From Escherichia phage UHP65: DNA of 44,416 bases. The notes under the pieces were generated by a model. That model did no database searches, was not told where the DNA came from, and saw only the letters and a program-made list of their open reading frames with translations. The stretch is taken from sequence record PQ511047.1; one strand, 5' to 3'. Made by a program: the position numbers and the translations under genes. Of the stretch, positions 10,211 through 10,370 are shown piece after piece. How positions within the stretch are numbered: position 1 is the first letter of the stretch; every line of letters starts with the position of its first letter.

Positions 10211-10260
10211 CAGTCTCAGACGAGGGGGGCCATTGACCCCCGTCTAGTCTGAAAGACTGG
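10211..10260. repeat. ~50 bp hairpin element, copy 1 (near-identical copy at 37648-37697)
   Basis: cagtctcagacgaggggggccattgacccccgtctagtctgaaagactgg; internal inverted repeats. Confidence 0.8.
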
Positions 10261-10370
10261 GCTTTGTCCCGCTTGTCCCGCTCCTCGCTAGGCCGCGTCA
10301 TCCGGGGCGGGACAGGGGTGCTGTCCCGCTTTGTCCCGCCCCTGGTCTGTCCCGCTTTTTGTCCCGCTTA
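10261..10370. repeat. array of GTCCCGC heptamer repeats (6 direct, 1 inverted)
   Basis: gtcccgc at 10266, 10275, 10323, 10333, 10349, 10361; gcgggac at 10307; non-coding gap between primase end and next gene. Confidence 0.8.

Follow-up and report, generated by a model that had tools for sequence, protein, structure and literature searches.

Replication origins at which an initiator acts on short repeats or hairpins are the closest described counterparts of the element treated here, a hairpin with an array of GTCCCGC repeats beside the helicase-primase gene of Escherichia phage UHP65 (sequence record PQ511047.1). The Rep proteins of staphylococcal pathogenicity islands (SaPIs) bind through a C-terminal winged helix to 6-12 penta- or hexanucleotide repeats (iterons) directly downstream of rep and load themselves, and PriRep5 of SaPI is a fused primase-helicase (PMC9371898). 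In P4, primase and helicase are joined in one polypeptide, the alpha protein, whose winged helix at the C-terminus binds origin repeats (PMC4234260, citing Ziegelin and Lanka 1995, Yeo 2002). The origin of pRN1 is an essential stem-loop directly 3' of the gene for ORF904, a protein made up of an archaeo-eukaryotic primase (AEP) type prim-pol, a helicase, and a winged helix, and Bordetella phages BIP-1/BPP-1 have been suggested to share this stem-loop arrangement (PMC4234260). The helicase RepA of RSF1010 unwinds the DNA and thereby exposes hairpins, at which the primase RepB' acts (as summarised in PMC4234260). The iterons of lambda are palindromic and can form hairpins of single-stranded DNA (ssDNA) that are sensed by OLD (bioRxiv 10.64898/2026.07.10.737580).

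The window, that is, the whole stretch of 44,416 base pairs (bp) that was analysed, is the complete genome of a Dhillonvirus (HK578-like siphovirus). It is collinear, with matching coordinates, with Escherichia phage jat (MN850650), the identity being ~91-96% in both regions studied. Few E. coli siphoviruses are isolated as frequently as Dhillonviruses, which are also represented in the BASEL reference collection (PMC8594841); a literature search for a mapped Dhillonvirus origin found none. Our analysis suggests that the array (copy 1, ~10178-10420) is probably, though far from certainly, an iteron-type replication origin of this phage. Most likely, judging from its parts, it would be an origin of a known general kind (iterons with a self-loading initiator-helicase) in a new configuration, which is duplicated in the genus by a second copy in the tail genes (copy 2). 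A first-pass annotation of the sequence had dealt with copy 1 alone and had read an iteron array beside a primase or initiator gene as a candidate origin of classic layout. This proposal survived every computational test, and the covariation of repeat and protein, the conservation of the layout, and a predicted winged helix added support to it. The layout is indeed found in the characterised SaPI Rep-ori (PMC9371898) and in the pRN1 stem-loop 3' of orf904 (PMC4234260).

The sequence and coordinates of the hairpin and the GTCCCGC array, placed earlier at 10211-10370, check out, and the inverted pair claimed for it was located at 10306-10329. The helicase-primase gene occupies 10474-12738 on the minus strand, so that the array does lie downstream of it, 3' of the stop codon. 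The parts of copy 1 are as follows.

10178-10210, minus strand: distal flank with two TATGCA motifs and ACACGGCAAC (minus-strand reading), the latter closing the module in all lineages
10211-10259, no strand: imperfect palindrome of 49 nucleotides (nt) with a GC-rich tip, CAGTCTCAGACGAGGGGGGCCATTGACCCCCGTCTAGTCTGAAAGACTG
10266-10281, plus strand: iteron set B, two direct GTCCCGC boxes (10266, 10275)
10282-10305, no strand: GC-rich spacer separating the two iteron sets, 25% A+T
10306-10329: head-to-head iteron pair GCGGGACAG-GGGGTG-CTGTCCCGC, with the inverted box at 10307-10313 on the minus strand
10323-10367, plus strand: iteron set A, four direct GTCCCGC boxes (10323, 10333, 10349, 10361), at positions kept in all Dhillonvirus loci
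10368-10420, minus strand: AT-rich gene-proximal flank with GTGAATAGTTATGCA and the palindrome TTATGCA-N7-TGCATAA

Six direct boxes and one inverted box, seven in total, thus lie within 10266-10367, and the array begins 104 nt beyond the stop codon of the gene (gene end 10474). The 7-mer GTCCCGC is mildly enriched in the whole window (17 found vs 9.2 expected). The majority of the sites of the 6-mer GTCCCG (20 of the 31 in the genome) fall inside the two copies, which together make up <1% of the genome, and the Poisson probability of seven sites per 110-bp window is ~3e-12, or ~1e-7 genome-wide. Folded as DNA, the 49-nt palindrome reaches -13.3/-14.3 kcal/mol (z ~-4.1, both strands). Because the two strands fold about equally, this fits a DNA palindrome, and we propose that it may serve as an extruded or single-strand hairpin for helicase loading or priming.

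The A+T content rises to 78% at 10372-10411, the highest of any 40-mer in the intergenic region, and this gene-proximal flank may be where the DNA unwinds and/or where a conserved factor binds. The 21-bp palindrome TTATGCA-N7-TGCATAA adjoins the first iteron in the window (10372-10393 and 37808-37828) and in two related loci (L029, 5263-5290; L045, ~12296-12320), and (GT)GAATAGTTATGCA stands twice, spaced 21-22 bp, in L003, L024, and L025. Considering that (GT)GAATAGTTATGCA is kept in L003, L024, L025, and L029 despite their different iterons, a conserved host or phage factor may bind this TTATGCA-type motif. The motif resembles an ArgR box (TGAATwwwwATTCA). A reading of TTATGCA as a DnaA box (TTATNCACA-like) was dropped; the last bases vary by lineage (CAAT, CAGT, CACC, CATA). 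Of the six occurrences of another shared word, TTATGCAG, in the window, five fall within the two copies.

The module was then compared within the genus, using phages jat and GeorgBuechner and 14 Dhillonvirus loci from IMG/VR (16 beyond the window), among them L016, in which the module is likewise present. Most loci keep the six direct boxes as complete 7-mers at unchanged spacings, and no locus has lost the six-base core of any of them. Conservation is lower for the inverted box than for the direct boxes; it drifts among the loci together with the inter-box bases. The palindrome arms are invariant across Dhillonvirus, while the 8-nt loop varies freely at constant length. An exact 23-mer of the palindrome was found in 16 IMG/VR contigs, all Dhillonvirus (twice in 13, once in 3), and nowhere else in 2.9 million viral contigs. 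Satellites, plasmids, or prophages sharing the module were considered and discarded: the exact 23-mer was absent from 185,579 species genomes, and neither 5,426 E. coli genomes nor the PLSDB plasmids gave a match to the module. The gene downstream of copy 1 (leftwards from window 9992-10000) differs among Dhillonviruses, those of the window, jat, and GeorgBuechner being unlike most others. Therefore, the intergenic region is a mosaic recombination junction.

No open reading frame (ORF) is conserved across either copy, and the longest stop-free frame over copy 2 switches strand and frame between relatives. Since no reading frame is conserved, the small ORFs called in both copies are probably spurious, and annotators may take small ORFs called inside these regions as probably not genes. 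In GenBank records the two regions are left blank or filled with small hypothetical ORFs; those called within the modules include HK578 gp47, GeorgBuechner bas16_0017/0018/0052, and SaI_NFG_5577 XRM22915/XRM22916.

Outside the genus, helicase-primase homologues with 37-70% identity were collected from IMG/VR, GenBank, and metagenome assemblies. Twelve lineages share the same order of parts directly 3' of the helicase-primase gene. On the gene side there is an AT-rich stretch with (GT)GAATAGTTATGCA-type motifs, followed by 3-4 direct and 1-2 inverted repeats; on the distal side there are a spacer, 2-3 direct repeats, an imperfect palindrome of ~50 nt, and a ACACGGCA(A/G)C motif. The palindromes differ in sequence, and in all ten lineages tested they fold significantly as ssDNA (z -2.2 to -4.8); the middle stem of L086 carries one compensatory A.T to G.C change. 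A central AT-rich motif, TGATTTATAAGGA, is found in the spacer of L078-L082, L084, L086 (including copy 2 of L086), and L028, while the Dhillonvirus spacer is GC-rich. Because the genes after the module vary even among Dhillonviruses, the module travels with the helicase-primase gene and not with the downstream genes. The repeat word itself is not constant, at least 10 different words being found over at least 12 lineages. Two proteins encoded beside the array were considered as possible readers of these words.

10474-12738, minus strand: helicase-primase gene, 754 amino acids, proposed initiator
10528-10743, minus strand: winged-helix coding region, residues ~666-737, with recognition helix H3 at residues 703-715 (GTSTKAIDDMVER), proposed iteron reader
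12749-13078, minus strand: helix-turn-helix (HTH) protein of 109 amino acids, sigma-70 region-4-like (Pfam HTH_23/Sigma70_r4_2), just upstream of the helicase-primase gene

From its N-terminus, the helicase-primase is predicted to comprise an AEP primase fold that includes a Cys/His cluster, an ATPase of the AAA_25 (RepA/DnaB-like) family in the middle, and a winged helix at the C-terminus. The name AEP primase/ATPase given to it earlier suits the prediction of an AEP fold joined to a RepA/DnaB-type ATPase. AAA_25, a RepA/DnaB-like RecA fold, was the sole Pfam match, and a PDB sequence search with the whole protein gave no match. We found that the first residues of H3 sort with the iteron word, as listed below by repeat word.

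CGGGAC: Dhillonvirus, P0010, P0012, and L075; H3 start GGT[SN]T
GTGGCA: P0007 and P0009; H3 start GGSST
GTGCCAA: P0008; H3 start GGSTS
GGTGCC: P0011 and P0013; H3 start GGST[ST]
TCGCAA: P0015 and P0018; H3 start TS.xY.K
CCGACA: L024
AGGGATA: L025
GGGGAT: L029
GGGGGAG: Salmonella phage SaI_NFG_5577

Four further pairs of H3 and repeat are each unique. Moreover, the repeat class was predicted from the protein before four further loci (P0012, P0008, P0011, and P0013) were fetched. P0012 turned out to carry CGGGAC and P0008 a new word, both as predicted. P0011 and P0013, whose H2 resembles that of the CGGGAC group, had been left open beforehand; they were found to share GGTGCC, and their H3 start is unlike that of the CGGGAC group. 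Overall relatedness does not explain the match between protein and repeat: over the C-terminal 115 alignment columns the window is nearer to P0011/P0013 (59-60%) than to P0010 (56%), yet it is P0010 with which it has the H3 motif and the iteron in common. A sharp specificity region was also sought by sliding-window identity, and this was not clear-cut; the C-terminal ~150 residues are merely the most divergent, and only the H2/H3 motif comparison was informative.

The small HTH protein was rejected as the iteron reader because its HTH is near-identical in lineages with different iterons: between the CGGGAC and GTGGCA lineages one residue (Q/V) differs, and the STVRSWVRN recognition stretch is the same. 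Its product names in the records are unrelated to one another ('transposase' for HK578 gp45, 'DNA recombination nuclease inhibitor gamma' for jat_18).

Copy 2 lies in the same transcription unit. The minus-strand block of the genome runs from 13078 to 1 and then around the circle from 44416 to 25989; in this direction it holds the small HTH protein, the helicase-primase, copy 1, small genes, the holins and lysin, the terminase/portal/head genes, the tail genes, the tail chaperone, copy 2, the tape-measure gene, and the tail-tip genes. The plus-strand block (13300-25964) encodes DNA polymerase, single-stranded DNA-binding protein (SSB), a nuclease, and a second helicase. Copy 2 comprises a complete module and two additional palindromic four-box units.

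37580-37961: copy 2, a non-coding gap of 382 nt between the stop of the tail-chaperone T ORF (37962-37964) and the tape-measure start (37579)
37648-37695: copy 2 palindrome, with the same arms as in copy 1
37703-37802, plus strand: copy 2 iterons, direct at 37703 and 37711, then a spacer, a degenerate inverted box at ~37745, and direct boxes at 37758, 37768, 37784, and 37796
37846-37880 and 37924-37959: palindromic four-box units, in copy 2 only, GCGGGAC-AAAA-CGGGAC/GTCCCG-TTT-GTCCCGC

The core of copy 2 (37643-37814) is 82% identical to 10206-10379, and the two copies have identical orientation within the single minus-strand unit. Copy 2 holds 13 perfect GTCCCG sites besides degenerate ones, and the two four-box units are 79 nt apart, with AT-rich DNA carrying TATGCA motifs between them. 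It is present in all Dhillonvirus loci, with a pattern of conservation like that of copy 1, and also in a sister lineage (68% helicase-primase and 62% chaperone identity), likewise between the T ORF and the tape-measure gene. Therefore, the duplication is old and has been maintained. In the Cornellvirus-like Salmonella phage no second copy was found, coding sequence occupying that position. The element is thus a two-copy system, with copy 1 in the ancestral, syntenic position.

As to the genes around copy 2, the tail chaperone gene (Phage_TAC_4, 38276-38653, minus strand) ends at a GAAAAAAAC run (38270-38290 region), and an overlapping ORF continues to 37962. This overlap of chaperone and T ORF matches the usual G/GT-type frameshift arrangement, and some records list the T part as a DUF1799 protein of its own. 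In L086 (3174-3554), an opposite-strand gene of 126 amino acids is inserted between the T ORF and copy 2; the TTGGTTGC motifs that flank it suggest a moron insertion hot spot.

From the anatomy, conservation, co-variation, and predicted folds, which are observed, we infer binding, melting, priming, and origin activity in the following form. The helicase-primase would bind the GTCCCG(C) boxes via its C-terminal winged helix, and several subunits would assemble on the six direct boxes and the head-to-head pair. The duplex would then open at the adjacent stretch of 78% A+T and/or at the 49-nt palindrome, which may extrude as a hairpin, and the ring, of RepA/DnaB type (superfamily 4, SF4), would load itself. 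The N-terminal AEP domain would make the first primers, and the phage DNA polymerase I would extend them. Copy 2 may itself serve as a further origin, or it may assist copy 1 in cis as crr does P4 ori.

Several points weigh against an origin at copy 1. The GC skew tracks the direction of transcription (minimum ~13 kb, maximum ~26 kb) and has no break at 10.3 or 37.8 kb; following gene orientation as it does, it cannot locate the origin in this genome. The centre of the array is GC-rich (10272-10311, 25% A+T), with AT-rich DNA at one edge, unlike SaPI, and an origin would not usually have a full second copy within the tail operon. Each copy has promoter-like motifs on its flanks, leaving room for a transcriptional role. 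The link between H3 and iteron is a correlation across ~10 classes of related sequences. Moreover, a clade with 43-44% identical helicase-primases (L020-L023, L026, and L027) is without the module, having terminators and convergent genes instead, and Kagunavirus (35% helicase-primase identity) is without it as well. Therefore, the module is not an obligate partner of the helicase-primase family.

Among the other explanations, the one that survives best is that the arrays serve transcriptional control, as operators or activator sites to which a phage regulator would bind, perhaps the helicase-primase in the role of repressor or activator; we consider this unlikely, if still worth keeping in mind. 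Copy 1 would then gate the switch from early replication to lysis/packaging, copy 2 would boost or time the tape-measure and distal tail genes, and the palindrome would act as a barrier or terminator. The position of copy 1, at the boundary of replication and lysis/structural genes on one long minus-strand unit, would suit this role, and so would the TTGGTTGC pairs and -10-like elements that flank both copies. The motif (A)TTGGTTGC has 20 occurrences in the window (6711, 6734, 9307, 10016, 10047, 10138, 10419, 10454, 13269, 16225, 16241, 19853, 22795, 22812, 24719, 24731, 27436, 32900, 43535, and 43549), mostly intergenic, on both strands, and often paired 14-35 nt apart. Near copy 1 it stands in gene orientation downstream (10016, 10047) and between the stop codon and the array (10419, 10454), and it is inverted at 10138. 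Some Dhillonviruses have an additional 54-nt unit with a third TTGGTTGC motif beside the helicase-primase stop. The downstream pair can be described as follows.

10007-10060, minus strand: TTGGTTGC pair 31 nt apart, ahead of the next gene (9512-9991), TTGCGC-N17-TATATT by eye

This pair looks promoter-like and is probably not part of the origin proper. The TTGGTTGC at 10016 and 43549 overlaps a TATATT -10-like hexamer ~27-35 nt ahead of a start codon. It had been stated in the first-pass annotation that copy 1 lies upstream of promoters carrying the motif; the motif is there at 10016 and 10047, whereas the sigma-70 consensus scan of 9800-10700 gave no promoter, and TTGGTTGCA is best called a putative promoter motif. 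As for its reader, TTGGTTGC co-occurs with the small HTH protein, being present in those lineages in which the sigma-r4-like form is encoded upstream of the helicase-primase. It is absent from the inspected stretches of lineages with a Cro-like HTH_3 protein, which have TTGGCCGC or CGGCAGC-type motifs instead. Based on this distribution, TTGGTTGC is likely an operator or promoter element of the HTH protein.

Further signals of this sort are a conserved TGATACAAT (extended -10 like) after copy 2, 60 nt ahead of the tape-measure start, a good sigma-70 promoter (e.g. TTGACA-17-TATTGT) after the module in L024, L025, and L029, and, in relatives, a U-rich TTATTCAnTTAT that comes after the palindrome. 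In UHP65 itself, however, the scan of copy 1 for terminators (GC-rich hairpin with T-run), over the same 9800-10700, was as empty as that for promoters. The palindrome is followed by GGGCTTTG on the plus strand and by CATAAAAT on the minus strand, and the Dhillonvirus palindrome is without a T-run on either strand. The same scan of copy 2 gave one weak promoter-like and two terminator-like sites, which is chance level. Nor does transcriptional control account readily for the iteron word, which tracks the winged helix of the helicase-primase and not the neighbouring HTH regulator, or for a module that remains attached to the 3' end of the helicase-primase gene whatever genes lie downstream; and 6-13 sites with a 50-nt palindrome exceed usual operator needs. 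Because origins are often activated by transcription, this explanation is compatible with an origin at copy 1, and the two functions may coexist.

A second alternative, which we regard as improbable, is that the origin lies elsewhere, for example in the divergent promoter region at ~13.1-13.3 kb, and that the arrays are accessory helicase-primase sites (autoregulation, replisome re-loading, pausing). The cumulative GC-skew minimum at ~13 kb and the related clade that lacks the module could be cited for it. Yet the turning points of the skew coincide with switches of gene orientation and hence carry no independent information, and no iteron cluster was detected at 13.1-13.3 kb.

The module might also act as RNA, of which the long minus-strand transcript would hold two copies: as a cis element for processing, stability, or antitermination, or as a small RNA or protein sponge. 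This seems to us slightly more doubtful still. In its favour, the two copies point the same way within a single transcription unit, a strong structure is predicted, and the loop varies on fixed stems. On the other hand, a search of the whole window with Rfam 15 gave no match at the gathering score, relaxed thresholds giving only miRNA-like hairpins at chance level (E 0.01-1). The near-equal folding of both strands is what a DNA palindrome would give, the boxes stand in either orientation and also form perfect four-box palindromes, and the word changes together with the DNA-binding helix.

Least probable of these, with very little chance in our estimate, is a small mobile or recombination element (like a miniature inverted-repeat transposable element, a homing target, or a site-specific recombination site) that was duplicated and has no replication role: the 82% identity of the copies over 175 nt with TTATGCAG/TTTATGCA at both sides, the inverted 11-mers GTTGCCGTGTA / TACACGGCAAC flanking copy 1, and the mosaic junction just beyond copy 1 would agree with it, but the two ends of the element do not match as terminal inverted repeats, a clean target duplication is lacking, the Dhillonvirus contigs of IMG/VR have at most two copies at two fixed positions, the species, E. 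coli, and plasmid collections gave no matches, and copy 1 is syntenic over lineages with diverged iterons. A packaging site has little support.

An origin at copy 1 thus being the reading we favour, it would matter in several ways if true. It would give two precise coordinates at which to look for the start of replication in this phage group, and a natural series of at least 10 pairs of iteron and recognition helix, showing how origin specificity is rewritten. It would also bring together a set of parts that have not been described together: no description of the combination of AEP primase, SF4 helicase, winged helix, iterons, and palindrome was found in the literature. Finally, it would point to a specific DNA structure as the possible trigger of P2 OLD in HK578 infection. 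P2 OLD is reported to restrict Dhillonviruses, and HK578 escapers of it map to the helicase-primase gp46 and the gp45-gp46 promoter; OLD was reported to sense ssDNA hairpins at ori-lambda, and the HK578 origin was not mapped in that preprint (bioRxiv 10.64898/2026.07.10.737580). HK578 gp45 and gp46 are homologues of the window genes 12749-13078 and 10474-12738, respectively. The palindrome-rich modules are a clear candidate for the trigger.

We hypothesize more broadly, and only tentatively, that Dhillonvirus, Cornellvirus, and uncultured relatives may possess a previously undescribed class of initiator. It would be a single protein of AEP, SF4 RepA-type, and winged-helix parts, self-loading at an origin of hexanucleotide iterons and a 50-nt palindrome, and its specificity would be reset by 3-4 residues at the start of one helix. 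The system would be bipartite in Dhillonvirus, with the module in the tail operon being crr-like, and the ssDNA hairpins of the modules would trigger OLD-family (possibly Lamassu) defences.

Some other features of the window and of related records were noted along the way. A hairpin AAAAAAGGGGCC-NNNN-GGCCCCT stands in three copies at gene ends (273-303, 25962-25992, and 38654-38684), one of them at the point of gene convergence near 25.97 kb; these look like intrinsic, possibly bidirectional, terminators. Four tandem repeats of 54-60 nt, rich in GAT/GAC/GAA (acidic, then KSKK/KRRR), lie at 16866-17071 inside the ORF 16284-17081, near the region corresponding to the SSB-like gene of relatives. 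A tRNA/tmRNA scan of the window found none. In L088 (Kagunavirus fEg-Eco19), the palindrome GTGAATAGTTCAC is found, flanked by TTGACA and a TATAGT-like hexamer, to either side of a small divergent gene (3310-3390 and 3730-3810); it appears to be an operator-like site, and it has the word GTGAATAGT in common with the proximal motif of the module. The record MG065648, 'Campylobacter phage A144', is 97% identical to the window across copy 2 and ~90% across copy 1. By these identities it is evidently a Dhillonvirus, and its Campylobacter host label is probably wrong or due to contamination.

Compared with the known systems, the locus resembles lambda-type origins in having iterons that would be read by a phage initiator and an adjacent AT-rich region. 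The lambda iterons, however, lie inside the initiator gene O, whereas those of Dhillonvirus lie outside the gene, and the initiator here is itself a helicase-primase, so that no host DnaB or lambda-P-type loader is implied. With IncQ plasmid RSF1010 it has in common a RepA-type helicase and a RepB'-like primase, as far as predicted. RSF1010 has three separate proteins, among them RepC, which binds the iterons, 20-bp iterons, and two ssi hairpins (ssiA/ssiB) on opposite strands, in contrast to one fused protein, iterons of 6-7 bp, and one palindrome per module, with the hairpin on either strand. The likeness to pRN1 lies in the 49-nt palindrome 3' of a gene with the predicted order AEP, ATPase, winged helix; pRN1 differs in its superfamily 3 (SF3) helicase and in a stem-loop of ~100 nt without iterons, while here there is an AAA_25 ATPase and a ~50-nt palindrome preceded by iterons. 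The Rep-ori of SaPIs and other phage-inducible chromosomal islands (PICIs) is similar in more respects, namely at least six short (5-7 bp) iterons directly downstream of the initiator gene (seven boxes here), iterons in both orientations, lineage-specific words, a predicted C-terminal winged helix, and no separate loader implied. The SaPI Reps, though, are SF3/AAA+-type helicases, unlike the AAA_25 ATPase (RecA fold, RepA/DnaB-like) found here, and SaPI is a satellite whereas UHP65 is a virulent siphovirus. The centre of the SaPI origin is AT-rich with opposed iterons on each side, while that of Dhillonvirus is GC-rich with the AT-rich DNA gene-proximal; the conserved 50-nt palindrome and the distant second copy are features of Dhillonvirus and not of SaPI. 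P4 has iterons that are TGTTCACC-type octamers, a Toprim/DnaG-like primase, and an SF3 helicase, where an AEP-fold primase and an SF4-like helicase are predicted here, and we know of no long palindrome described for P4. Nevertheless, P4 requires a second iteron cluster, crr, in cis and kilobases away, and two separated clusters of one iteron, at 10266-10367 and 37703-37957, are what the Dhillonvirus genome contains. The ori/crr pair of P4 is therefore the best precedent for the two-locus arrangement.

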